From the sequence record OM937123.1: a stretch of DNA of 39,173 nt; one strand, written 5' to 3'. A program made the translations under genes and the position numbers. Position 1 is the first letter of the stretch, and each line of letters starts with the position of its first letter. The notes beneath the pieces are model-generated. The model saw only the letters and a program-made list of their open reading frames with translations. It did no database searches and was not told the origin of the DNA. Positions 1 to 39,173 of the stretch are shown here, one piece after another. Origin of the DNA: Escherichia phage CY1.

Positions 1-127
1 GCGCGGTGGGATGTATAATGACGTCTCATTGGAGGGTATCGCAAACGTACTAATCGGTAAGGAGTAACATAATGGCGACTCGTGGTATTCGCAATAACAA
101 TCCGGGTAACATCCGGGTAAGTAAGGA
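1..127. repeat. 127-bp exact duplicate of window positions 39047-39173 (end of gene 15 plus start of gene 16); probable circularisation overlap
   Basis: The first 127 nt of the window match its last 127 nt by eye. The copy carries the gp15 stop and the gp16 start, so it lies inside coding sequence. Confidence 0.85.
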
Positions 128-3100
128 CCAATGGGAAGGAATGACTGGAGATGATGGCGCATTCGTCACCTTCGATAGTCCAGAGTCTGGCGTCCGAGCT
201 TTAGGTAAAAACCTGCTGTCCTACGGTCGCCAAGGTTATGACTCCATCGAGAAGATTATCAACCGATGGGCACCTCCTAACGAAAACGACACTCAGGCTT
301 ATATTGACTCAGTGGTTGCTGCTACTGGTATTCCAGCTACCCAGAGTCTCGACCTCTCAAACCCGGACACCCTGTCTTCTCTGGCGCAAGCTATCAGCTT
401 CCATGAGACAGGCTCCCGGTATGACCCTGAAGTCTATCAGAAGGGAGTCGAAAGAGCACTTAACGGTATCAGCCCAAAGACTCCACCAGTAAGCGCAAAC
501 GTATTTGACGCACTCACGGAAGGACTCAAGGCTAAACCTAAAGTAGCTCTGGGTGAGAACCTTCCGACCGCTGCTGGTCTAAACATTGAGGGTCAAGCAC
601 CTGAAGCTCCCAACGAATCGTTCGGTGAGATGTTCTATAAGTCTACTGGCGAGACCATGCAGGAGCGAGAAGACCGTTCTACGTGGTTTGGTTTCGGTGC
701 GGCTACAGAAGCTGAAGTGAAGAACTCTATGGTCGGCGTGGCTATCCGCGCTGGTCAGACCGAGGACTCACTTGATGTCATTGGCGATGTGTTCAACCCG
801 ACCCGCTGGAACAACCATAAATGGACCCGTGAGGAGCTTGACCAGATTCGTAACGCTGGGGTTCTGCCTCAGTATTACGGAGTCATTACGGGTGGCTCTC
901 CTCAGAACCTGACCGAGCTTATTAACTTGGCGCTTGAGAACCAGAAGTTGGACCAAGAGAGGGCCAAGTCTGGGACTGGTGCTCATTTAGCTGCTGGTTT
1001 GATTGGCGCTGGTGTGGACCCCCTGACCTACGTTCCTATCGCTGGACAGGTGGGTAAAGGCGGTAAACTGGTCAACAAGATGTTCACAGTGGCTGCCCAA
1101 GTTGGAGCACTATCTGGTGTGTCTGAGGTTGCCCGTACCTCAGTGGCTGGTGGTGATGCTCATGTGGCTGAAGCTATCCTTGGTGGTGCTCTATTCGGTG
1201 CAGGTATGACTGCTATCGCTGATGGCTTAGGTAGAGCCTTAGGTCGCAACACTAATGAGTTCGCTGGTCCAGCTACACGTCTGGAAGCCCGTGAGACCGC
1301 TCGTAACGTTGATGGTCAGGACCTGTCTCGTCTCCCTATTCAGGAAGGTGAGCAGACCTTTAGTCATCAGGGCGTTAAGTTCGCTGACGTGCCGAATGAG
1401 CCTGGAAGTGTTCGACTTGAGGATGGTTCAATCTTGATTGGCGAGAACCCTCTTAACCCTAAGACACGTCAAGTCTTTGACGAAGTGATTGAGCCGGAAC
1501 GTGCCGCTGCTGGTGTGAACCTTGGTGGACTTACCGAGATTGGCCTGAAGCTACTTCGGTCTGAGAACCCTGAGATTCGTGGAGTAGCTGCTGACTTAGT
1601 ACGTTCACCGACTGGTATGCAGTCTGGGGCCTCAGGTAAAATCGGGACCACTGCGTCTGACGCGTTCGAGAGACTTCGTGCTGTAGACCATCGGTTCTAC
1701 AACGACTTCGACGTTGCAGTTACTGAGGCACTCAAGGACCCGTACTTCCAGACAGCATTCTGGCGAGATAACTCAGCTCTGCGTGAGGATGTCCATAAGC
1801 GCGTAGCTTTGGCTATTGAAGATGGTAGTGGGAACCTGAAGTCTGAACTTACACCGGGGGAACTGAAAGTCTATGACCTGCTGAAGAACCTGTTTGATAC
1901 AAAGCGCGAGATGATGGAGAACCCAGCGATGTTTGGTCGTACAGACGCTAAGTCTATCTTTCCGGGTAGTAGATTCAAGGGAACCTACGTTCCTGTAGTC
2001 TACAGTTCTCCGATGAAGCAGCTTTATATCAATGAGCTTGGAAGCCCAGAGGCATTACAGGAGGCAATCAAGAAGTCATTTCTAGCAAGCTATGCGTCAA
2101 GACCTAAAGTCAAGGCTAGGATTGATGAATATCTGAAGGAGAAGCATAAGGACGTTTTCGCCAAAGCTGAAGCTGACGCCAAACTTGCGCCTGAGCGACC
2201 TCCTGTAGAATCAGCCCGTGACCAGATGAAACTGGACGATGCAGCTACACAGGCAATTGATAAGGTAGCGGAACTCAAAGATGTCCTTACCAACGCTGAG
2301 AAGCGAGTTGCAGACCGTGAAAAGAAACTCCAGAACTCCAAGGACAGACTGGCTTCGCATGAAGCTAAGCTGAAGGAGTTGGAAGAAAAACTAGCTGCTA
2401 AGCCTAATAGCAAGACCATTCCCGTTAAGATTGAGAGCCGGAAGCAGATGATTGAGACCCAGAAGTCTCACATTCGTATTAACACCGAGCGTCTCGAATA
2501 CACGAAAGGACAGGCTGCTAAGGTCAGAGACAGAATCACCAAAGCAACAACTGAAGCTGAAGCGGCTGTGACAGCTGCCAAAGGGAAGAAGACTTCTGTA
2601 GATGGTCATGCCACTACTACTACTGCTGGTGAAACTACATCTGGTAACGCATCTCAAGCAGCACCAGAGGTGACTATGGAGATGGTAGAGAAGTATGCTA
2701 ATGATAAGGCTTATGGTATCTCCCATACAGATCAGTTTGAGCGTTCATCCGTAATGGAAGAAAACATCAACGGTCTGGTCGGTCTGGAGAACAATAACTT
2801 CCTTGAGGCTCGCAACCTGTTCGATACCGACGTGGAAATCACCCTGCCAAATGGTAAGCAGTTCAGCGTAAACAGTCTACGTGAGTGGGACATGGACAAG
2901 ATTGTCCCGGCCTACAACCGTCGAGTTAATGGCGATATTGCTATCATGGCTGGTACAGGAAAAACCACTAAGGAAATGAAGGACTTGGTTGAGACCCTGA
3001 TGAACAAGGCTGGTGATGACGGCAAGTTGAAAGGTGAGGTCTCGACCTTACGTGACACCTTGAAGATTCTCACTGGTCGTGCCAGACGTGATGGTGCTGA

Positions 3101-4463
3101 CGATGCTGCCTTCGCTACAGTGATGCGCACAATGACAGACCTATCGTTCTTCGCTAAGAATGCCTACATGGGTGTTCAGAACTTAACGGAGATTGGTGGT
3201 ATGCTAGCTCGTGGTAACGTTCGTGCATTGCTACATGGAGTCCCGATGTTCCGTGACCTAGCCTTCCGTAACAAGAAGGTAGGGGCCTCAGAGATTAAGG
3301 ACCTGCACAATGTTATCTTCGGTAAGGAACTGGACGACTCAATCCGTCCGTCCAAACAGGATGTCATTGACCGTCTGCGAGCGTACAGTGACTTGAGTAA
3401 ACCAACAGCTACAGCTCTAGGGACTGCCAAGTATTACACTGGTGAACTTGCAGTACGCTCTCCATTCACTAAAGTCCTCAACGGCACGACAAACTACCTG
3501 TTAGATGCTGGACGTCAAGGCTTCCTGTCTGATATCGTGGAGCATAGTCTGACTGGCAGTAAGCGTAAGTTCGATGACCGCTGGCTGAAGACCGCTGGTA
3601 TCTCTGACGAGCAGTGGAAGGGCATTAAGTCCCTAATCCGTGAGTCAGTGACTCGTGGTCCAGACGGGAAGTACACCATCAAGGATAAGAAGGCGTTCAG
3701 TCAGGACCCAAGGGCTATGGACCTGTGGCGTATGGGTGACACCATCGCTGACGAAACGATACTCCGTCCTTATAAGCTATCCAACATGGATGCCAAGGCT
3801 TATGGTCCTCTCGCTAAGACTGTCCTTCAGTTTAAGAACTTCGTCATCAAGTCCATCAATGGGCGAACCATGCGAACCTTCTATAACGCCACGAAGAACA
3901 ACCGAGCGATGGACGCTGCTCTGTCCACTGTGATGTCTATGGGTCTAGCTGGTATCTACTACATGGCTCAGGCGCACGTCAAGGCTTACGCTATGCAGGA
4001 TGGTCGAGACCGTGATTACCTCAAGAAAGCTCTGGACCCGACGATGATTGGCTATGCGGCTCTGTCCCGTAGCTCGCATCTGGGCGGCCCACTTGGGGTA
4101 GCTAACATTCTGGGTGGCATCGCTGGGTATGAGGACACTAAGTTACTCCGCTCGTCTATCCTACCTCGTTCGCCTACAGAGAAGCCTGAACGTGCCATCG
4201 CGTATGGTGCAGCCACAAGTGACCCTGTGATGAATGTTGTTGGTAACTTCTTGGAGCAGGTTCCAGCTTTCGGATATGCTGCTAACGTTGGAGCTTCGGC
4301 TTACAACTTGGCTGGCTACCTCAAGGCTGATACTCGTGTCAACGAGCGTGACTACATGACCGGGATGTATAATACGTTCCGTGAACTGGTTCCGAACGAC
4401 CCACTTACCCAGAAGCTGTTGCTTGGAACGTTTGAGGAGCAAGGTATCCACATCAAGGACTAA
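72..4463 (+). CDS. gp16: Internal virion protein D (gp16 homologue, ejectosome/core protein), 1463 aa, with non-T7 N-terminal domain
   Basis: ATG with AAGGAG Shine-Dalgarno. From about aa 200 onward the translation tracks T7 gp16 (STWFGF..., VDPLTYVP, PEMVEKYA.DKAYGISH, NGDIAIM.GTGKTTKE, NDPLTQ.L). The first ~200 aa are unlike the T7 transglycosylase domain. Confidence 0.93.
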   Translation: MATRGIRNNNPGNIRVSKDQWEGMTGDDGAFVTFDSPESGVRALGKNLLSYGRQGYDSIEKIINRWAPPNENDTQAYIDSVVAATGIPATQSLDLSNPDTLSSLAQAISFHETGSRYDPEVYQKGVERALNGISPKTPPVSANVFDALTEGLKAKPKVALGENLPTAAGLNIEGQAPEAPNESFGEMFYKSTGETMQEREDRSTWFGFGAATEAEVKNSMVGVAIRAGQTEDSLDVIGDVFNPTRWNNHKWTREELDQIRNAGVLPQYYGVITGGSPQNLTELINLALENQKLDQERAKSGTGAHLAAGLIGAGVDPLTYVPIAGQVGKGGKLVNKMFTVAAQVGALSGVSEVARTSVAGGDAHVAEAILGGALFGAGMTAIADGLGRALGRNTNEFAGPATRLEARETARNVDGQDLSRLPIQEGEQTFSHQGVKFADVPNEPGSVRLEDGSILIGENPLNPKTRQVFDEVIEPERAAAGVNLGGLTEIGLKLLRSENPEIRGVAADLVRSPTGMQSGASGKIGTTASDAFERLRAVDHRFYNDFDVAVTEALKDPYFQTAFWRDNSALREDVHKRVALAIEDGSGNLKSELTPGELKVYDLLKNLFDTKREMMENPAMFGRTDAKSIFPGSRFKGTYVPVVYSSPMKQLYINELGSPEALQEAIKKSFLASYASRPKVKARIDEYLKEKHKDVFAKAEADAKLAPERPPVESARDQMKLDDAATQAIDKVAELKDVLTNAEKRVADREKKLQNSKDRLASHEAKLKELEEKLAAKPNSKTIPVKIESRKQMIETQKSHIRINTERLEYTKGQAAKVRDRITKATTEAEAAVTAAKGKKTSVDGHATTTTAGETTSGNASQAAPEVTMEMVEKYANDKAYGISHTDQFERSSVMEENINGLVGLENNNFLEARNLFDTDVEITLPNGKQFSVNSLREWDMDKIVPAYNRRVNGDIAIMAGTGKTTKEMKDLVETLMNKAGDDGKLKGEVSTLRDTLKILTGRARRDGADDAAFATVMRTMTDLSFFAKNAYMGVQNLTEIGGMLARGNVRALLHGVPMFRDLAFRNKKVGASEIKDLHNVIFGKELDDSIRPSKQDVIDRLRAYSDLSKPTATALGTAKYYTGELAVRSPFTKVLNGTTNYLLDAGRQGFLSDIVEHSLTGSKRKFDDRWLKTAGISDEQWKGIKSLIRESVTRGPDGKYTIKDKKAFSQDPRAMDLWRMGDTIADETILRPYKLSNMDAKAYGPLAKTVLQFKNFVIKSINGRTMRTFYNATKNNRAMDAALSTVMSMGLAGIYYMAQAHVKAYAMQDGRDRDYLKKALDPTMIGYAALSRSSHLGGPLGVANILGGIAGYEDTKLLRSSILPRSPTEKPERAIAYGAATSDPVMNVVGNFLEQVPAFGYAANVGASAYNLAGYLKADTRVNERDYMTGMYNTFRELVPNDPLTQKLLLGTFEEQGIHIKD

Positions 4464-4481
4464 ACTATCACTATAGGAAAC
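4459..4481 (+). promoter_or_regulatory. Phage RNAP promoter (phi17-like), TAAACTATCACTATAGGAAAC, +1 near 4476
   Basis: Matches the 11-copy in-window consensus aACTATCACTATAGGa; lies between gp16 and gp17, as T7 phi17 does. Confidence 0.8.
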
Positions 4482-4527
4482 GGGAGGCGCTACCATAGGT
4501 CTCCATTTAAATCACAAAGGAGGCATA

Positions 4528-6726
4528 ATGTCCACGATTACACAATTCCCTTCAGGAAACACTCAGTACAGGATTGAGTTCGACTACCTAGCCAGAACGT
4601 TTGTTGTTGTTACGCTGGTGAATAGCTCTAACCCTACCCTGAACCGTGTACTGGAAGTTGGTCGAGATTACCGATTCCTTAATCCAACGATGATTGAGGT
4701 GTTGGTTGACCAATCAGGTTTCGACATCGTTCGTATTCACCGTCAGACTGGAACTGACTTAGTGGTAGACTTCAGGAATGGCTCAGTGTTGACAGCTAGT
4801 GACCTTACCAATGCAGAGCTTCAGGCTATCCATATTGCAGAAGAAGGTCGAGACCAAACGGTTGACTTAGCGAAGGAATATGCAGATGCTGCTGGTAGGT
4901 CTGCTGGCAACGCTAAGGATAGCGAGGACGAAGCACGACGAATCGCTGCTAATATCAAGGAAGCTGGTCTAATTGGCTATATTACACGTCGCTCCTTCGA
5001 GAAAGGCTTCAACGTTACAACATGGAACGAGGCCCTGCTATGGGAAGAGGATGGTCATTATTACCGCTGGGACGGTGAACTTCCTAAAACCGTTTCTTCT
5101 GGATCAACCCCAGAGACTGCTGGTGGTGTTGGCCTTGGAAAGTGGCAACTTGTTGATGTTACTGATGTGTTGCGTAAAGATCTTGCAGGGTCTGAGGGGG
5201 CAAAATTAGTTTACGATGGCGATACGTCTGTTAGCGACAAACTTGCGGATTTAACAAGTCACGCCTTAAGCGGTTATTCAGTCATACAAAATGATGTCTA
5301 CAGGATTGCGTCCACCGCAAATTCCTTAGATTTTAACCTCTCAGTTGTAATTACTGGCGACTCCCTGAGCTTTAATGGTGTTGGCTATCCCGAAACATTT
5401 GCTGTCAATTATGCTGGGTATGCAACGGATCAGCCATTCGGTTTAAGCTCATGGTCTTATCTTCTGCGAGACGCGATCTTCACAGCGACTCCGGCATATA
5501 AAAACATCTTTGATATTCCATGGCTATCTGATGCTTCGGTATCTGGTTCCCCTGTTAGTGATTTGAAGAACCTCGGGCTTAATGGGAAGGCACTAAAATG
5601 GACGTTCGCGGAAGGTCAGTCGTTAAGTCTTTATAATGACTACCCCGGAACACCAGCGATTATTGTTTCAAAGGCTCCTGCTGCCAGTGCTGTAAAATTC
5701 AACATTGGCGGCGTGGAGTTTAACAATACATCAGTTGATGGTCTCTATCAGTCCAGTGAATACATGCTGATTCCGCTTGATAATAACTACTATGAAATAA
5801 CAATTAAAAACGTAAGAAACGCGCAAACAAATGCTCCAGGAGGGAGTCTTACCGTATACGGTATTACGCATGCAGGCAGAACATGGCCGAGGATCACAGG
5901 TAAAGGTGGGTGGACATCAGGGCAGATCCTGTCAGAGTTTGGAACGCTTGTAACTCCGTACTCACCTGATGTCATTTTCTATATCATCGGGGCTAATGAT
6001 ATTGGTCTTGGTGTTCCTGTTGCAGATTTCAAAAGCAATGTCGAAGCCTTCGTTCAGCAAGCGAGAGCACTAAAAAGCGACTCCATAATTGTTTTGATGT
6101 CAACGCCTCCAGAGCAGAGTTTGCCTTACCAGACAATCAAGCCTTACATTGCAGCGATGAAGGACATTGCAATTCAGTATAAATGCTCTCTCATCGATTT
6201 GTATGAAGCTATGCGGACATTAAACCCTAATTACTACAGGTTTGATAATATCCACTGGAAAGCAGCTGGTGATAACTTTGTCTATAACTACATCAAAGAA
6301 AAAATCATTCCAACGCTTAACAACAGCACTTTTGACCCGACAAGGGAGGCGTACACTGGTGCTGGCGGACTGGCTGGAAAACGTGCATCTCAAACATTTA
6401 ATGTTAGCGTTACTGCATCTGCTACAACGCCGACCAAGTCTAACGGAGGATATATTGAACCATATATTACGGCGTATTACTCAACCAGTCACGGAATTGT
6501 AAACCTAAACATTAAGGCTCCAGTAGGGTTTAAGATATCTAGCTTTTCATATCTTCCCGATACAATCGGATGGGGGAAGAGGGTGATACTCTCTGCATAT
6601 AACGATGCGGATTATCAGGAGGCTCTTTTTTCGCTTATAGATAATGCTACTAACAACCCTGTAAGTATTGATGGCACAGATGCGAAAGTAATTGTGACAA
6701 TCACAAGGGATGAAAGTAAAATATAA
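4528..6726 (+). CDS. gp17: Tail fibre protein (gp17 homologue) with T7-like N-terminal anchor and a C-terminal GDSL/SGNH hydrolase-like domain
   Basis: SD AAAGGAGG. The N-terminal ~150 aa resemble the T7 gp17 tail-attachment domain. Downstream, SGNH motifs are visible: GDSL (ITGDSLSF, nt ~5356), GxND (IIGANDIG, nt ~5989) and DxxH (FDNIHW, nt ~6241). Confidence 0.9.
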
Positions 6727-9625: not shown

Positions 9626-9661
9626 CTACCAGTCTAACCTACTGTTTTACAAGGAGTTTGG

Positions 9662-9684
9662 ACTTAACTATCACTATAGGAAAG
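9662..9684 (+). promoter_or_regulatory. Phage RNAP promoter (phiOR-like, before gene 19.5), +1 near 9679
   Basis: TTAACTATCACTATAGGAAAG matches the in-window consensus. Confidence 0.8.
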
Positions 9685-12306: not shown

Positions 12307-12566
12307 TGAAAACCGTATACACTCACAAATCATCAAGCCGTAGCCGCATGGAGCAAGTACAGCGCGATATGTTCCTACAGAGACGCATGAGAGCAGAAGG
12401 GCATAAGTCTGAGCTGATGTGTCTGGCGTATGGTGGACGACCAATCACCGACGACGGTAAACTTCTGGTCTCAGGCTGGAAGGCGATAGACCAACGGTCA
12501 ACCATCAAGCACACGACTCATGGTGACTTCAGTAATCTTCACGCTAACCCACTGATATGCAAGTAA
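12306..12566 (+). CDS. Hypothetical early protein, 86 aa
   Basis: ATG overlaps the upstream stop; + strand; no recognised homology. Confidence 0.5.
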   Translation: MKTVYTHKSSSRSRMEQVQRDMFLQRRMRAEGHKSELMCLAYGGRPITDDGKLLVSGWKAIDQRSTIKHTTHGDFSNLHANPLICK

Positions 12567-12571
12567 TTCTG

Positions 12572-12594
12572 ACTTAACTATCACTATAGGACTC
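12572..12594 (+). promoter_or_regulatory. Phage RNAP promoter directly upstream of the RNAP gene, +1 near 12589
   Basis: TTAACTATCACTATAGGACTC is a perfect consensus core, 75 bp before the gene 1 start. Confidence 0.75.
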
Positions 12595-17597: not shown

Positions 17598-17620
17598 CCT
17601 AAGCTATCACTATAGGACAA
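17598..17620 (+). promoter_or_regulatory. Phage RNAP promoter (phi1.5/1.6-like), +1 near 17615
   Basis: CCTAAGCTATCACTATAGGACAA; one mismatch to the consensus (G for A at about -12). Confidence 0.7.
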
Positions 17621-17648
17621 CCATAACTTCGACCTAAGGAGGCCGACC

Positions 17649-19949: not shown

Positions 19950-20173
19950 TGACTCAAGAAGTTAAGGTCGTTCGTAAGCGTCTGACCATTGATAAAATCC
20001 CGGTAGGCTATGCGTTTATCGTCCACGGTAAGCCGGGTGAAGTGTACGTGAAGATTAGCAACTCTCACGTCTTCAACCACAAGTTGCTCCAGATGCACAC
20101 CACGGATGCTAACCGCTTCCAAAGTCATCTTAACCTCGTAGCTGTAGAGCTGGTGGTGTACGATGGTGAGTAA
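19946..20173 (+). CDS. Hypothetical protein, 75 aa
   Basis: Start overlaps the gene 3 stop; + strand; no recognised homology. Confidence 0.5.
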   Translation: MMTQEVKVVRKRLTIDKIPVGYAFIVHGKPGEVYVKISNSHVFNHKLLQMHTTDANRFQSHLNLVAVELVVYDGE

Positions 20174-20621
20174 GGTTCAGTTCAACCCACGGTCCCGTAC
20201 TGAAGCTATCTTCGTTCACTGTTCGGCTACCAAGCCAGATATGGACATAGGTGTAGAGACCATACGTATGTGGCACAAGCAGCAAGGCTGGCTGGACGTA
20301 GGCTACCACTTTATCATCAAGCGCGATGGAACTGTGGAAGAGGGTCGCCCGGTCAATGTAGTAGGGTCACACGTTAAGGACTGGAACTCCAAGTCTGTAG
20401 GCGTCTGCCTTGTAGGTGGAATCGACGCCAAGGGTCAGTTTGAAGCTAACTTCACTCCAGCCCAGATGAACGCCCTGCGAAACAAGCTGGCTGACCTGAA
20501 GGCCCTGTATCCTCAGGCAGAAATCAAAGCACATCATGACGTAGCACCGAAGGCGTGTCCCAGTTTCGACTTGCAACGCTGGTTGACTACCAACGAACTG
20601 GTCACTTCCGACCGAGGCTAA
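20163..20621 (+). CDS. gp3.5: N-acetylmuramoyl-L-alanine amidase (T7 lysozyme, gp3.5 homologue), 152 aa
   Basis: AIFVHCSATKP, WLDVGYHFIIKRDGTVEEGR, VGVCLVGGID, HHDVAPKACPSFDL and NELVTSDRG are near-identical to T7 lysozyme. Confidence 0.95.
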   Translation: MVSKVQFNPRSRTEAIFVHCSATKPDMDIGVETIRMWHKQQGWLDVGYHFIIKRDGTVEEGRPVNVVGSHVKDWNSKSVGVCLVGGIDAKGQFEANFTPAQMNALRNKLADLKALYPQAEIKAHHDVAPKACPSFDLQRWLTTNELVTSDRG

Positions 20622-26945: not shown

Positions 26946-26968
26946 ACTAAACTATCACTATAGGGACT
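26946..26968 (+). promoter_or_regulatory. Phage RNAP promoter (phi6.5-like), +1 near 26963
   Basis: CACTAAACTATCACTATAGGGACTT. Confidence 0.8.
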
Positions 26969-27029
26969 TTAGGACCTAAGATATGACTATAAGATAGACT
27001 TTAGTCTTAACTTAAAGAGGAGATTCAAG

Positions 27030-28223: not shown

Positions 28224-29792
28224 ATGGCTGAACGTGAAGGGTTCGCTGCTGAAGGAGCCAAAGCGGTCTATGACCGACTGAAGAACGGTAGACAGCCATA
28301 TGAGACACGCGCTCAGAACTGTGCTGCTGTCACTATCCCGTCACTGTTTCCTAAGGAGTCCGACAACTCGTCCACTGAATACACAACTCCGTGGCAAGCT
28401 GTGGGTGCTCGCTGCTTGAACAACTTGGCTGCAAAGCTGATGTTGGCATTATTCCCTCAGTCACCGTGGATGCGACTGACAGTCTCCGAATATGAGGCCA
28501 AGACCTTGAGTCAGGACTCAGAGGCTGCTGCTCGTGTTGACGAAGGGCTTGCTATGGTAGAGCGTGTGTTGATGGCCTACATGGAGACTAACAGTTTCCG
28601 TGTCCCATTGTTCGAAGCTCTGAAGCAGCTTATCGTCTCCGGTAACTGTCTGCTCTACATTCCAGAGCCTGAACAAGGTACTTACAGTCCTATGCGAATG
28701 TACCGCTTAGTGTCCTACGTTGTTCAACGTGATGCTTTCGGTAACATCTTACAGATTGTGACTCTCGACAAGGTAGCGTTTAGTGCTCTACCTGAAGACG
28801 TGAAGTCTCAACTCAACGCAGACGACTATGAGCCTGACACCGAGCTGGAAGTGTATACGCACATCTACCGTCAGGACGACGAGTATCTTCGCTACGAGGA
28901 AGTGGAAGGAATTGAGGTAGCAGGGACAGAGGGTTCTTACCCACTGACTGCATGTCCGTACATCCCGGTACGAATGGTTCGACTGGATGGTGAAGACTAT
29001 GGTCGTTCTTACTGCGAGGAGTATCTGGGAGACCTGAACTCGCTGGAGACGATTACAGAAGCTATCACCAAAATGGCTAAGGTAGCCTCCAAGGTGGTTG
29101 GCCTCGTTAACCCGAACGGTATCACGCAACCTCGTCGTCTGAACAAGGCGGCTACAGGTGAGTTCGTGGCGGGTCGCGTCGAGGACATCAACTTCCTGCA
29201 ACTGACGAAAGGTCAGGACTTTACGATTGCCAAGTCGGTGGCTGACGCTATCGAGCAACGTTTAGGCTGGGCCTTCCTTCTTAATAGTGCTGTTCAGCGT
29301 AATGCCGAGCGAGTCACTGCTGAAGAGATTCGTTATGTTGCTGGCGAACTGGAGGCGACCTTAGGTGGCGTGTACTCAGTACAATCCCAAGAGCTTCAGT
29401 TACCTATCGTCCGTGTGCTGATGAACCAGCTTCAGTCTGCTGGCATGATTCCTGACCTTCCGAAAGAAGCGGTTGAGCCTACGGTCTCCACAGGTCTGGA
29501 AGCGTTAGGACGTGGTCAGGACTTGGAGAAGCTAACTCAGGCAGTCAACATGATGACCGGTCTTCAGCAGCTCTCTCAGGACCCAGACATTAACTTGCCG
29601 ACCCTGAAGCTGCGACTGCTGAATGCCTTAGGCATTGATACTGCTGGTCTGCTTCTGACTCAGGACGAGAAGATGCAACGTATTGCTGAACAATCCGCTC
29701 AAGGAGCTGTGGTCAACGGTGCGTCTGCTGCTGGTGCAAACATGGGTGCTGCTGTAGGTCAGGGAGCTGGTGAGGACATGGCTCAAGCCTAA
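28224..29792 (+). CDS. gp8: Portal (head-tail connector) protein (gene 8 homologue), 522 aa
   Basis: PYETRAQNCA, IPSLFPK.SDN.ST.Y.TPWQAVGAR.LNNLA.KLMLALFP, MRLT.SEYEAK, YRLVSYVVQRDAFGN, RYEEVEG.EV.G and RVTAEEIRYVA match T7 gp8. Confidence 0.96.
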   Translation: MAEREGFAAEGAKAVYDRLKNGRQPYETRAQNCAAVTIPSLFPKESDNSSTEYTTPWQAVGARCLNNLAAKLMLALFPQSPWMRLTVSEYEAKTLSQDSEAAARVDEGLAMVERVLMAYMETNSFRVPLFEALKQLIVSGNCLLYIPEPEQGTYSPMRMYRLVSYVVQRDAFGNILQIVTLDKVAFSALPEDVKSQLNADDYEPDTELEVYTHIYRQDDEYLRYEEVEGIEVAGTEGSYPLTACPYIPVRMVRLDGEDYGRSYCEEYLGDLNSLETITEAITKMAKVASKVVGLVNPNGITQPRRLNKAATGEFVAGRVEDINFLQLTKGQDFTIAKSVADAIEQRLGWAFLLNSAVQRNAERVTAEEIRYVAGELEATLGGVYSVQSQELQLPIVRVLMNQLQSAGMIPDLPKEAVEPTVSTGLEALGRGQDLEKLTQAVNMMTGLQQLSQDPDINLPTLKLRLLNALGIDTAGLLLTQDEKMQRIAEQSAQGAVVNGASAAGANMGAAVGQGAGEDMAQA

Positions 29793-29810
29793 ACTATCAC
29801 TATAGGAACA
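29788..29810 (+). promoter_or_regulatory. Phage RNAP promoter (phi9-like), +1 near 29805
   Basis: CCTAAACTATCACTATAGGAACAA. Confidence 0.8.
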
Positions 29811-29899
29811 ACACAACTTGAGTGAGTGAACGCATGGCCAGCCGTAACTGACTGGCAGGTTGTTGTGTTTCCTATTAACTACCAAAGGAGAATGACTCA

Positions 29900-30785: not shown

Positions 30786-30808
30786 ACTAAACTATCACTA
30801 TAGGGAGA
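30786..30808 (+). promoter_or_regulatory. Phage RNAP promoter (phi10-like, TATAGGGAGA), +1 near 30803
   Basis: GACTAAACTATCACTATAGGGAGACC is the copy closest to the strong T7 class III initiation region. Confidence 0.85.
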
Positions 30809-30910
30809 CCAAGAGAAAGACTCAAGGCTTCCCTATTACTTCAGTCCATACGGATTGGGCATACAGTAAGTAATAAACTTTATCTTTCAATTGAATAGGA
30901 GAATTATCAT

Positions 30911-35334: not shown

Positions 35335-35357
35335 CCTTAACTATCACTATAGGGACT
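35335..35357 (+). promoter_or_regulatory. Phage RNAP promoter (phi13-like), +1 near 35352, embedded in a 10-bp perfect inverted repeat
   Basis: CCTTAACTATCACTATAGGGACT, flanked by GGGCCTATAG (35320-35329) and CTATAGGCCC (35356-35365). Confidence 0.8.
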
Positions 35358-35386
35358 ATAGGCCCTTAAGGTTATAAGGAGACTTT

Positions 35387-36264: not shown

Positions 36265-36819
36265 ATGTCTGTAGCTGGTGCCACTATGTCCGCATCCCAA
36301 CAGGCCAAGGCTGAAGGAGCAGCAATTGACGCTCAGAACCGACAGGCTCAGGAAATGGTTAAGCAGATGAACTACTCTGACGCCAACCTGAAGATGCAAG
36401 AGCGCGACCTGAAGGAGCAGCAGATGGCTGAACTGACAGAGACCACGCTCAACGGTATCCGCAATCAGGGTATGGTCCGAGCTGCGGTGGCTGAGTCCGG
36501 TCTGGAAGGTAACTCTATGGATAGGATTGAACGTCAGGTCGCAGGAGATACAGTCAAGGAGCGAGCAGGGATTACCGAAAGTTACAACCGCGACTATGCG
36601 GCTATCTTCGGGAACCGTATCGCCAACATTGAGAACACAAAGTCTGCTATCCGTGGTCAAGGTAAGATCATCAAGACCAGCCCACTAGCTCATGCACTTA
36701 ATGTTGCTAACGCCGGGATTCAAGGTTACGCCGCTGGTAAGTCAATGTCTGGGACTTCAGGCTCTGGTGGTGCTGCACCAATTAGTGCTGCTAAAGGCAC
36801 ACCTACAGGTCATAGCTAA
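36265..36819 (+). CDS. gp14: Internal virion protein B (gene 14 homologue), 184 aa
   Basis: GMVRAAVAESGLEGNSMDRIERQ and YNRDYAAIFG resemble T7 gp14 (GSIRAAIGESMLEGSSMDRIKR, YRRDYQAIFA); synteny. Confidence 0.88.
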   Translation: MSVAGATMSASQQAKAEGAAIDAQNRQAQEMVKQMNYSDANLKMQERDLKEQQMAELTETTLNGIRNQGMVRAAVAESGLEGNSMDRIERQVAGDTVKERAGITESYNRDYAAIFGNRIANIENTKSAIRGQGKIIKTSPLAHALNVANAGIQGYAAGKSMSGTSGSGGAAPISAAKGTPTGHS

Positions 36820-36830
36820 GAGGAGGACTA

Positions 36831-39113
36831 ATGGCTAGTAATATTCAATCAGCTCTGGCTAATCGGACTATGGGTCGTGGCAGAGCGCCGGGTAAAACTA
36901 TCGCCGTCAACTATCAAGCAGCCAACGTTCAGGCTCCGACTGGGGACTCCGGGCTGGCTCGTGCATTGACTAACTTCGTTGAGTCTGGGACAGGATTGTA
37001 CAAGCAGTTCAAGGACGAGGAGAAGACACGGGCCGACGAGCGGTCTAACGAGATTATCCGTAAGCTGACACCTCAGCAAAGACGTGAGGCTATCCAGAAC
37101 GGCACATTGCTGTATCAGGATGACCCTTACGCTATGGAAGCACTTAGAGTCAAGACTGGTCGTAATGCTGCCTTTGCTGTAGACGACGAGATTACCGTTA
37201 AGATTCAGAACGGTGAGTTCCGTACACGTCAAGACATGGAAGAGTATCGCCACCAGCGACTTCAGGATGCAGCCAAGTCCTATGCTGAAGAGGCGGGTAT
37301 TAACCCTACCGACGAGTTCTTCCAGCGTGGATTCAACGATAACATCACGGACCGAAACATCGCTATCTACGGGTCCTTCAATAAGTATTTCAGCAAGCAG
37401 TCTGAAGAGACAGCAATGTTGAACACTCGTATTGAGCTGAACTCGTTCCTTAACGATGGGGACCTGATGCGTTCGCCTGAGTCTGGAAAGACCTTCATGG
37501 CCTACCTTCGGGATGGACTGACGACTGCTGCTATACCTTCGGACCAGAGAGCACGAGAGGTCATCACCCAGACGGTCCGTGACGCAATCCAGAAGTCAGG
37601 AGGCTCAAACTTCCTACAGCAAGTCCGTGGCGAGCGTATCACCCTTAATGGTGTTGACGCTACCATCGAAGAGATTGTAGGACCTGACGTCTTCAATGCT
37701 GCTATGGTTGAGGCCCAAGGTACTGAGTATAAACTGGTGGCTAAGTATCAGGAAGACTTGGCGTTAGGCGTTCAGTCTGCGATTCTTCAGGATGACCCAA
37801 CCATTGGTCTGGCCCAGATTCAGAAACTCAAGGAGCAGAACAACCTGCTTCAACCGGGTGAAGAACTCACGCCTCAGCGTCAGATGCTTATTAATGCCGA
37901 AGCCAGCTTGCTTGAAGCGGTCAAGCGTAAGTCTGCTGAACAGGCGAAGGAGAACACTAAGTTAATCCAGACCCAGAACAAGCAACTGGTCATTGACCAA
38001 GTGTATCAGCGACGTCTGGCTGGGGACAATGTGTCCACCAACTATGAGGACCTTCCGGTCTCTGAAGCTACAGGAGAGTTCAAGCGTTCAGACATGAACA
38101 ACTATGCGTCTGCCAAGCTACAGCAGATTGACCAGATGGACATCCCTGAGGCTGCTAAGGACGCTCAGAAGGTGGCATTGTTGAGGGCTGACACTAACAA
38201 TGGTCCTTTCCGTAATGCCTTCCAGACGCTTACTCAGGACGCTGCTGGTGAGTGGCAAGCTGCGGTCATCCGTGGGCAGTACGACCCAGACAAGATGCAA
38301 CGCTTCGAATCTCTTCGTCGTTCCTACACTCAGGACCCTTCAAGTTTTGCTGCTCTGTATCCTGACCAAGCTCAGTTGTTCTCTACGTTCGACCAGATGG
38401 ACAAGATGGGTCTGGACCCTCAGACGATGATTGAAGCTGATAAGCAAGCTGCAAGTCAAAGCCGTGAGATGCGCATGGAGTCAGACAAGGCGTGGCAGGA
38501 GTTGAAGAACGACTCCAAGAACACCCAGTTGTCTCGTCTCCCAACGTCTCTGGATGCAAGTGCTCGTAAGGTCTGGGACTCATGGTACTATCGTACAGGT
38601 AACGCTGACGCTGCAACTCAGCAGACTCAACGCTGGCTGAATGAAAATACCGTAACGTTCCAGTCTGAAGGTTCTGACGGTAAGTCCATTGGCATGGTGT
38701 CAAAGCACCAGCTTATGGTAGGGGATAACCCAGAGTCGTGGCAGGTTGGTCGAGACATTATCGACACCGCTCGTAAGCAGCTCATTAAGGCCAACCCTTG
38801 GGTAGTGAACTCTCAGTTGTCCGTTGTTGAACAGAACGGCTCTATCTTCCTCCAAGACGCTACAGGGACTATTCGTATTCGCTACGATAAAGAACTTGTA
38901 GGTAAACTCTACCGCGAACAACAGCAGAAGGCACAAGATGCCGCATACGCTAAGGCAGAACGTGAAGCTAACAAGCGAGCGCGTATCGTCGGGACTAAAG
39001 CTGCTGGTGACAAACGTCGAGCTGACCGAGAGGCCAACATCGAGAAGCGCGGTGGGATGTATAATGACGTCTCATTGGAGGGTATCGCAAACGTACTAAT
39101 CGGTAAGGAGTAA
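36831..39113 (+). CDS. gp15: Internal virion protein C (gene 15 homologue), 760 aa
   Basis: Size (T7 gp15 is about 747 aa), synteny directly before gp16, SD AGAGGAGG; its last 22 codons are duplicated at window positions 1-67. Confidence 0.9.
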   Translation: MASNIQSALANRTMGRGRAPGKTIAVNYQAANVQAPTGDSGLARALTNFVESGTGLYKQFKDEEKTRADERSNEIIRKLTPQQRREAIQNGTLLYQDDPYAMEALRVKTGRNAAFAVDDEITVKIQNGEFRTRQDMEEYRHQRLQDAAKSYAEEAGINPTDEFFQRGFNDNITDRNIAIYGSFNKYFSKQSEETAMLNTRIELNSFLNDGDLMRSPESGKTFMAYLRDGLTTAAIPSDQRAREVITQTVRDAIQKSGGSNFLQQVRGERITLNGVDATIEEIVGPDVFNAAMVEAQGTEYKLVAKYQEDLALGVQSAILQDDPTIGLAQIQKLKEQNNLLQPGEELTPQRQMLINAEASLLEAVKRKSAEQAKENTKLIQTQNKQLVIDQVYQRRLAGDNVSTNYEDLPVSEATGEFKRSDMNNYASAKLQQIDQMDIPEAAKDAQKVALLRADTNNGPFRNAFQTLTQDAAGEWQAAVIRGQYDPDKMQRFESLRRSYTQDPSSFAALYPDQAQLFSTFDQMDKMGLDPQTMIEADKQAASQSREMRMESDKAWQELKNDSKNTQLSRLPTSLDASARKVWDSWYYRTGNADAATQQTQRWLNENTVTFQSEGSDGKSIGMVSKHQLMVGDNPESWQVGRDIIDTARKQLIKANPWVVNSQLSVVEQNGSIFLQDATGTIRIRYDKELVGKLYREQQQKAQDAAYAKAEREANKRARIVGTKAAGDKRRADREANIEKRGGMYNDVSLEGIANVLIGKE

Positions 39114-39173
39114 CATAATGGCGACTCGTGGTATTCGCAATAACAATCCGGGTAACATCCGGGTAAGTAAGGA
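39047..39173. repeat. 127-bp exact duplicate of window positions 1-127; carries the gp15 stop and the first 18 codons of a second, truncated copy of gp16 (39118-39173)
   Basis: Sequence identity to 1-127 read directly; ATGGCGACTCGTGGTATTCGC... is the gp16 start. Confidence 0.85.

Follow-up and report, generated by a model that had tools for sequence, protein, structure and literature searches.

A predicted Enc34-type endolysin catalytic domain in place of the T7 lytic transglycosylase domain at the N-terminus of gp16 in Escherichia phage CY1

What occupies the peptidoglycan-attacking end of gp16 in Escherichia phage CY1, and what would it do during infection? In gp16 of bacteriophage T7, the published description distinguishes transglycosylase "wings" (amino acids [aa] 1 to 156) from a "molecular tape" (aa 157 to 228), which cements gp15 into a periplasmic tunnel (PMC8954989). 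We analyzed the window, meaning the whole 39,173-nucleotide stretch of sequence record OM937123.1, which contains a complete T7-like genome and starts just 5' of gene 16. The 1,463-aa product of the open reading frame (ORF) at 72..4463 (+) begins MATRGIRNNNPGNIR and matched phrog_342 ("internal virion protein with endolysin domain") with E=0. Gene 16 is preceded by gp14/gp15 at 36265-39113 and followed by gp17 at 4528-6726, and the upstream gp14 matched Pfam T7_gp14. Both the homology of its tape and body and the gp14-gp15-gp16-gp17 synteny identify the protein as a T7-type gp16, and the closest relatives are Kayfunavirus (K1F-like) phages. The features of the locus are as follows.

59..64, + strand: strong Shine-Dalgarno sequence AAGGAG, 7 nt 5' of the gene 16 ATG and within the 3' end of gene 15 (sequence reading)
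72..4463, + strand: gene 16 homologue encoding gp16, an internal virion/ejection protein of 1,463 aa (ORF; T7 gp16 and phrog_342 matches; synteny)
72..458, + strand: predicted Enc34-type (PHA02564) peptidoglycan hydrolase domain, aa 1 to 129, in place of the T7 SLT domain (sequence and predicted fold)
459..689, + strand: linker, window aa 130 to 206, that corresponds by homology to T7 aa 157 to 228, the gp16 "molecular tape" (BLASTP)
690..4463, + strand: conserved gp16 body, which is the inner-membrane and cytoplasmic part in T7 (homology)

Several other observations concern the surroundings of the gene. The window carries an exact direct duplication of 127 nt (1-127 = 39047-39173), which most likely represents the overlap of a circularized assembly, leaving a unique genome of 39,046 bp; because of this duplication, the gene 16 start is present twice (72 and 39118). 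The motif CT(A/T)A(A/G)CTATCACTATAGG(A/G) recurs at 4460-4490, 17599-17629, 26947-26977, 29789-29819, 30787-30817, and 35336-35366, and also at 9634-9681 and 12544-12591. It looks like a phage RNA polymerase promoter consensus, and one copy lies between the end of gene 16 and gene 17, the position of the phi17 promoter in T7. The downstream gp17 combines a T7 tail-fiber N-terminal adaptor, Tail_spike_N, and a GDSL/SGNH esterase (Pfam Lipase_GDSL_2, 2.3e-17), which suggests a deacetylating receptor-modifying spike and not an endosialidase as in K1F.

We used BLASTP to align the window gp16 with T7 gp16 (NC_001604); window aa 130 to 692 aligned with T7 residues 157 to 717 at 51% identity, and window aa ~865 to 1463 aligned with T7 residues ~720 to 1315, so that identity over aa 130 to 1463 was 46-51%. 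Window aa 1 to 129 produced zero alignment with T7 aa 1 to 156 in this comparison. The homology breaks off sharply, between aa 129 and 130 in the window protein and between aa 156 and 157 in T7, and this junction coincides with the published border between wings and tape (PMC8954989). A preliminary description of this DNA had proposed that the first ~200 aa differ from the T7 SLT domain, that the remainder is gp16, and that a domain was swapped at the wall-penetrating head. The difference, the swap, and the gp16 identity from aa 130 onward all hold up; the extent does not, as the differing region spans ~129 aa (72-458), and the stretch at 459-680 (aa 130 to 203), which had been counted as part of the foreign domain, is homologous to T7 gp16 157 to 225. 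By alignment, one module has been cleanly exchanged for another at the end of gp16 that attacks peptidoglycan, and the tape has been kept rather than swapped. The comparison with T7 gp16 (internal virion protein D; PDB 7EYB, 7K5C, 6YT5) is thus one of homology from tape to C-terminus, with the muralytic module likewise at the extreme N-terminus; whereas T7 aa 1 to 156 constitute an SLT/GH23 domain with catalytic Glu37, window aa 1 to 129 constitute what appears to be an Enc34-type domain unrelated to it by sequence.

Profile scans agreed with the BLASTP result. For gp16 aa 1 to 203, no Pfam family scored better than E=0.13, with SLT not among the matches, and no NCBIfam family was found at E≤1; as a positive control, T7 gp16 aa 1 to 200 matched Pfam SLT (PF01464) at 5e-31. 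A T7-type N-terminal SLT domain with the catalytic Glu37 was therefore not found in the window gp16 by either BLASTP or Pfam. The authors of the K1F genome paper reportedly already remarked on the missing transglycosylase motif.

The identity of the domain emerged from comparison with solved structures. Using phmmer against PDB sequences, we identified 7q47_A ("Endolysin") at E=2.7e-14 over aa 3 to 123, along with the near-identical 9vvp_L ("Gp29") from an entry titled "Core proteins of the bacteriophage E1004." The former is the catalytic domain of ORF39, the endolysin of Hafnia phage Enc34, and belongs to NCBI CDD family PHA02564 (PMC8943055). We identified 992 homologues of the N-terminal domain at E≤1e-3, and a PDB search with a profile built from the window domain and 61 of these (62 sequences in total) matched two entries only, 9vvp_L and, at 1.4e-40, 7q47_A. 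AlphaFold modeled the domain with a mean pLDDT of 88.3 and a pTM of 0.81; Foldseek aligned this predicted model to 7q47 (E=2.4e-9, TM 0.77), and the model has the all-helical fold of the family, which resembles a permuted lysozyme alpha-lobe. Sequence and predicted model both place gp16 aa 1 to 129 in family PHA02564, that of the Enc34-type endolysin catalytic domains. The preliminary description had called the activity of the domain unknown, a view that its match to a solved and enzymatically characterized family does not bear out.

The same searches weigh on the alternative of an SLT/GH23 lytic transglycosylase that has diverged strongly. Aligned by hhalign with T7 aa 1 to 156, the 62-sequence profile gave a probability of 0.13%, and neither a profile match nor a fold match to SLT/GH23 was obtained for the N-terminal domain. 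Because the hhalign probability is this low and the profile and Foldseek both match 7q47, the route to a divergent SLT domain is closed; the T7 SLT control was positive, and the reading was rejected after the Pfam, Foldseek, hhalign, and family-profile checks had all been run. Two points speak for it nonetheless. Many GenBank records of Kayfunavirus gp16 are named "peptidoglycan lytic exotransglycosylase" or "peptidoglycan transglycosylase," although this label was probably transferred from T7 through the homologous body. In addition, the Enc34 authors propose a very distant shared ancestry with GH73 and GH23 through the permuted lysozyme alpha-lobe and a common Glu/Tyr/aromatic signature (PMC8943055). 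Taken together, we regard a diverged transglycosylase as very unlikely.

In Enc34, Glu131 is the proposed catalytic glutamate, and Trp79 and Tyr95 are important for catalysis (PMC8943055). The phmmer alignment places corresponding residues in the window gp16 at the following codons.

267..269, + strand: Trp66 codon, aligned to Enc34 Trp79, the substrate-positioning aromatic residue (phmmer alignment; roles from PMC8943055)
300..302, + strand: Tyr77 codon, aligned to Enc34 Tyr95 (phmmer alignment)
405..407, + strand: Glu112 codon, aligned to Enc34 Glu131 (alignment, FHETGS versus RHENGS)

The Trp79/Tyr95/Glu131 signature of the Enc34 family is thus present as W66/Y77/E112. All 62 aligned sequences carry Y77 and E112 (62/62), and position 66 is occupied by W in 55/62 homologues and by Y in the other 7/62; Glu112 is also kept in K1F, SFPH2, STP-SP6, and Esher2. 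An N-terminal motif, R7-N8-x-N10-x-x-N13-x-R15, is likewise invariant in this alignment, and position 11 of the signature motif is proline, but Ile in some Kayfunavirus gp16s. Pairwise Nei-Gojobori comparison of five Kayfunavirus gp16s yielded a dN/dS of 0.06-0.15 for aa 1 to 129, similar to that of the tape, and the N-terminal domain is under purifying selection.

Purifying selection by itself fits binding as well as catalysis, and the domain could be a "wing" of the periplasmic tunnel that has a structural or peptidoglycan-binding role without catalysis and is kept for assembly or anchoring. The gp16 of Vibrio phage JSF24 (Chatterjeevirus; 3339-6722) is 1,127 aa long with only ~54 aa before the conserved body. 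Chatterjeevirus gp16 is without an N-terminal peptidoglycan hydrolase domain of either type; such a domain can therefore be dispensable, and enzymatic activity in gp16 is not universally required. Against this, the proposed catalytic Glu and the Tyr are invariant both in gp16 copies and in free-standing endolysin-like homologues, and related domains are demonstrably muralytic, which makes a purely structural role distinctly unlikely.

The enzymatic evidence comes from two such relatives. The Enc34 catalytic domain (ORF39ΔC) lyses outer-membrane-permeabilized cells of E. coli, P. aeruginosa, and Hafnia (PMC8943055), and M4LysΔTMD, from Salmonella phage BSPM4, degrades purified peptidoglycan (PMC7143992). 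Analysis of the muropeptides released by M4LysΔTMD indicated an N-acetylglucosaminidase and possibly an endopeptidase as well, although the legend of one of its figures reads "N-acetylmuramidase" (PMC7143992). The Enc34 authors consider the family most likely to be beta-N-acetylglucosaminidases (PMC8943055). Our literature search found no enzymatic measurement for any gp16-borne copy of the domain. By homology to Enc34 ORF39 and M4Lys, we infer that the window gp16 domain is muralytic, and the bond it would cleave is probably that of an N-acetylglucosaminidase and not that of a lytic transglycosylase.

The likeness to these two proteins is confined to the domain. Both Enc34 endolysin and M4Lys are lysis-cassette proteins that measure ~230-260 aa and carry a transmembrane domain at the C-terminus, whereas the window domain heads a 1,463-aa ejection protein that has no such transmembrane tail, and identity between the window domain and these proteins is only ~33-37%. 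Gp16 does not have the whole-protein architecture of an Enc34-type endolysin; the domain is a member of the catalytic-domain family and not of that architecture, because the gp16 tape and body come next, within the structural gene block.

We used TBLASTN to search with gp16 aa 1 to 203, and this analysis identified 753 phage records, 225 of which, including K1F, had ≥80% query coverage; 133 phage records were 95-99% identical over these 203 aa. K1F gene 16.0 (NC_007456, YP_338126) encodes essentially the same protein, as does the gene for Gp29 (PDB 9VVP) of E. coli phage E1004, with few differences over aa 1 to 203. In the genus Kayfunavirus, an N-terminal Enc34-type domain is standard for gp16. 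These 225 records and the deposited structure show that the region is one of the known gp16 N-termini with a wide distribution, a possibility that the preliminary description had named as counting against its own proposal. Searches returned 1283 records for the gp16 body and, at ≥80% coverage, 1004 for the SLT domain of T7; roughly 1 gp16 in 6 would thus have an Enc34-type head and most others SLT, a ratio of separate counts and not a cross-tabulation. A literature search for a paper on PDB 9VVP or phage E1004 found none, the entry being cited in a 2026 preprint only.

Outside gp16, the domain occurs among phages in endolysins of Chi-like siphoviruses, structural proteins encoded by Pseudomonas phages such as MP38 and the JBD phages, a Uetakevirus virion protein, tape-measure-annotated profiles, corticovirus proteins, and a 1,292-aa "internal virion protein D" of a Providencia phage, and it is found in many free-standing "structural proteins" of 130-220 aa in bacterial genomes. 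The Enc34-type domain is a widely travelled muralytic cassette. Phrog_873 and the weaker TBLASTN matches had been guessed to be gp16s of SP6-like or Vibrio T7-like phages; this was not so for the two matches inspected, which were an 837-aa Uetakevirus virion protein and a 127-aa corticovirus protein.

Within Kayfunavirus, the catalytic domain of Escherichia phage MirsaeidiM_Esher2 has a dS of 0.29 to SFPH2 and 1.44 to the window, and its tape is window-like (dS 0.22). This mosaic points to recombination at the boundary between domain and tape within the genus.

A separate feature of the window gp16 is an insertion of ~170 aa at ~2145-2660 (aa ~692 to 863), which is predicted to form a coiled coil and is Thr/Ser-rich. 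It is absent from T7 gp16 and from E1004 Gp29, K1F gp16, and most Kayfunavirus gp16s, which are 1,295 aa long. Using TBLASTN, we found the insertion in 19 phage records only, always within gp16, and these phages infect Escherichia, Klebsiella, Shigella, Enterobacter, Yersinia, and Kosakonia. The insert of the Teseptimavirus JacobBurckhardt is close to 90% identical to that of the window, whereas the flanking gp16 is about half identical; the JacobBurckhardt gp16 N-terminus is not alignable with that of the window, and the alignment begins at JacobBurckhardt residue 157. The insertion looks like a lineage-sporadic cassette that moves horizontally within gp16.

Because the best-characterized members of the family, Enc34 ORF39 and M4Lys, are lysis-cassette endolysins, the gp16 domain might be imagined as a second endolysin that acts mainly late in infection rather than at ejection. 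It is, however, covalently part of a virion-packaged core protein, and the near-identical E1004 Gp29 is placed by the 9VVP model within the core stack of the capsid; the domain also has neither a signal sequence nor an Enc34-type C-terminal transmembrane domain. As the genome encodes its own usual T7-type Amidase_2 lysozyme homologue (gp3.5; 20163-20621), the gp16 domain would therefore be an enzyme of entry and not of lysis, and a late lytic role is highly improbable.

Our preferred reading is that an Enc34-type glycoside hydrolase head has replaced the SLT domain and acts in ejection, and we assign it a probability of roughly 0.8. Its established part comprises family membership (sequence and predicted fold), active-site conservation, purifying selection, the boundary, and the genus-wide distribution; we infer muralytic activity (from Enc34 ORF39 and M4Lys) and bond specificity, and T7 gp16 serves as the model for when and how the domain would act in ejection. 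Points against this reading are the conflicting indications on bond specificity in the family, the Ile at position 11 in some Kayfunavirus gp16s, and the Chatterjeevirus gp16 that does without such a domain. In the proposed sequence of events, gp16 would be packaged in the capsid core and leave via the tail at infection. Once periplasmic, the N-terminal domain would cut the peptidoglycan glycan strand locally; Glu112 would be the acid catalyst, the substrate would be held in position by Trp66 and Tyr77, and this local cut would most likely let the gp15-gp16 tunnel assemble. Next, the tape (aa 130 to 206) would fasten gp15 in the tunnel across the periplasm, and insertion into the inner membrane would fall to the gp16 body. 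In T7, transglycosylase mutants of gp16 are delayed in genome entry at low temperature (20 °C), on stationary-phase cells, and where the wall is highly cross-linked.

A further proposal is that the swap alters the chemistry of wall penetration, exchanging a lytic transglycosylase for a hydrolytic N-acetylglucosaminidase, perhaps with an M4Lys-like endopeptidase side activity, and that this might give K1F-like phages an entry advantage in hosts or growth states with peptidoglycan that resists SLT enzymes (e.g., O-acetylated or highly cross-linked). We consider this unlikely. If it were true, the ejectosome head would be a determinant of host range or condition range that recombines as a cassette, and the Esher2 mosaic hints at such recombination.

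Comparable modularity is found elsewhere. The C-terminal lysozyme domain of phiKMV-like gp42 is likewise a swappable peptidoglycan-degrading module on an ejection protein, although it has a T4-lysozyme-like fold and its carrier is a gp15-like tunnel protein. Among Autographivirales ejectosomes, the peptidoglycan hydrolase is placed modularly, and lysozyme or transglycosylase domains were identifiable in 127/205 genomes (bioRxiv 10.64898/2026.05.18.726046).

The Enc34-type head of gp16 is real but ordinary, and it opens no long-standing question; the domain family was already known, as was its placement in gp16 across a long-sequenced genus with a deposited cryo-EM model. It adds another example to the known theme that the peptidoglycan-degrading modules of podovirus ejection proteins are interchangeable cassettes. 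The practical value lies in annotation, in that Kayfunavirus gp16 heads are Enc34/PHA02564 domains that Pfam and NCBIfam miss, and Enc34-type domains could explain some of the Autographivirales genomes beyond the 127/205 with identifiable domains.
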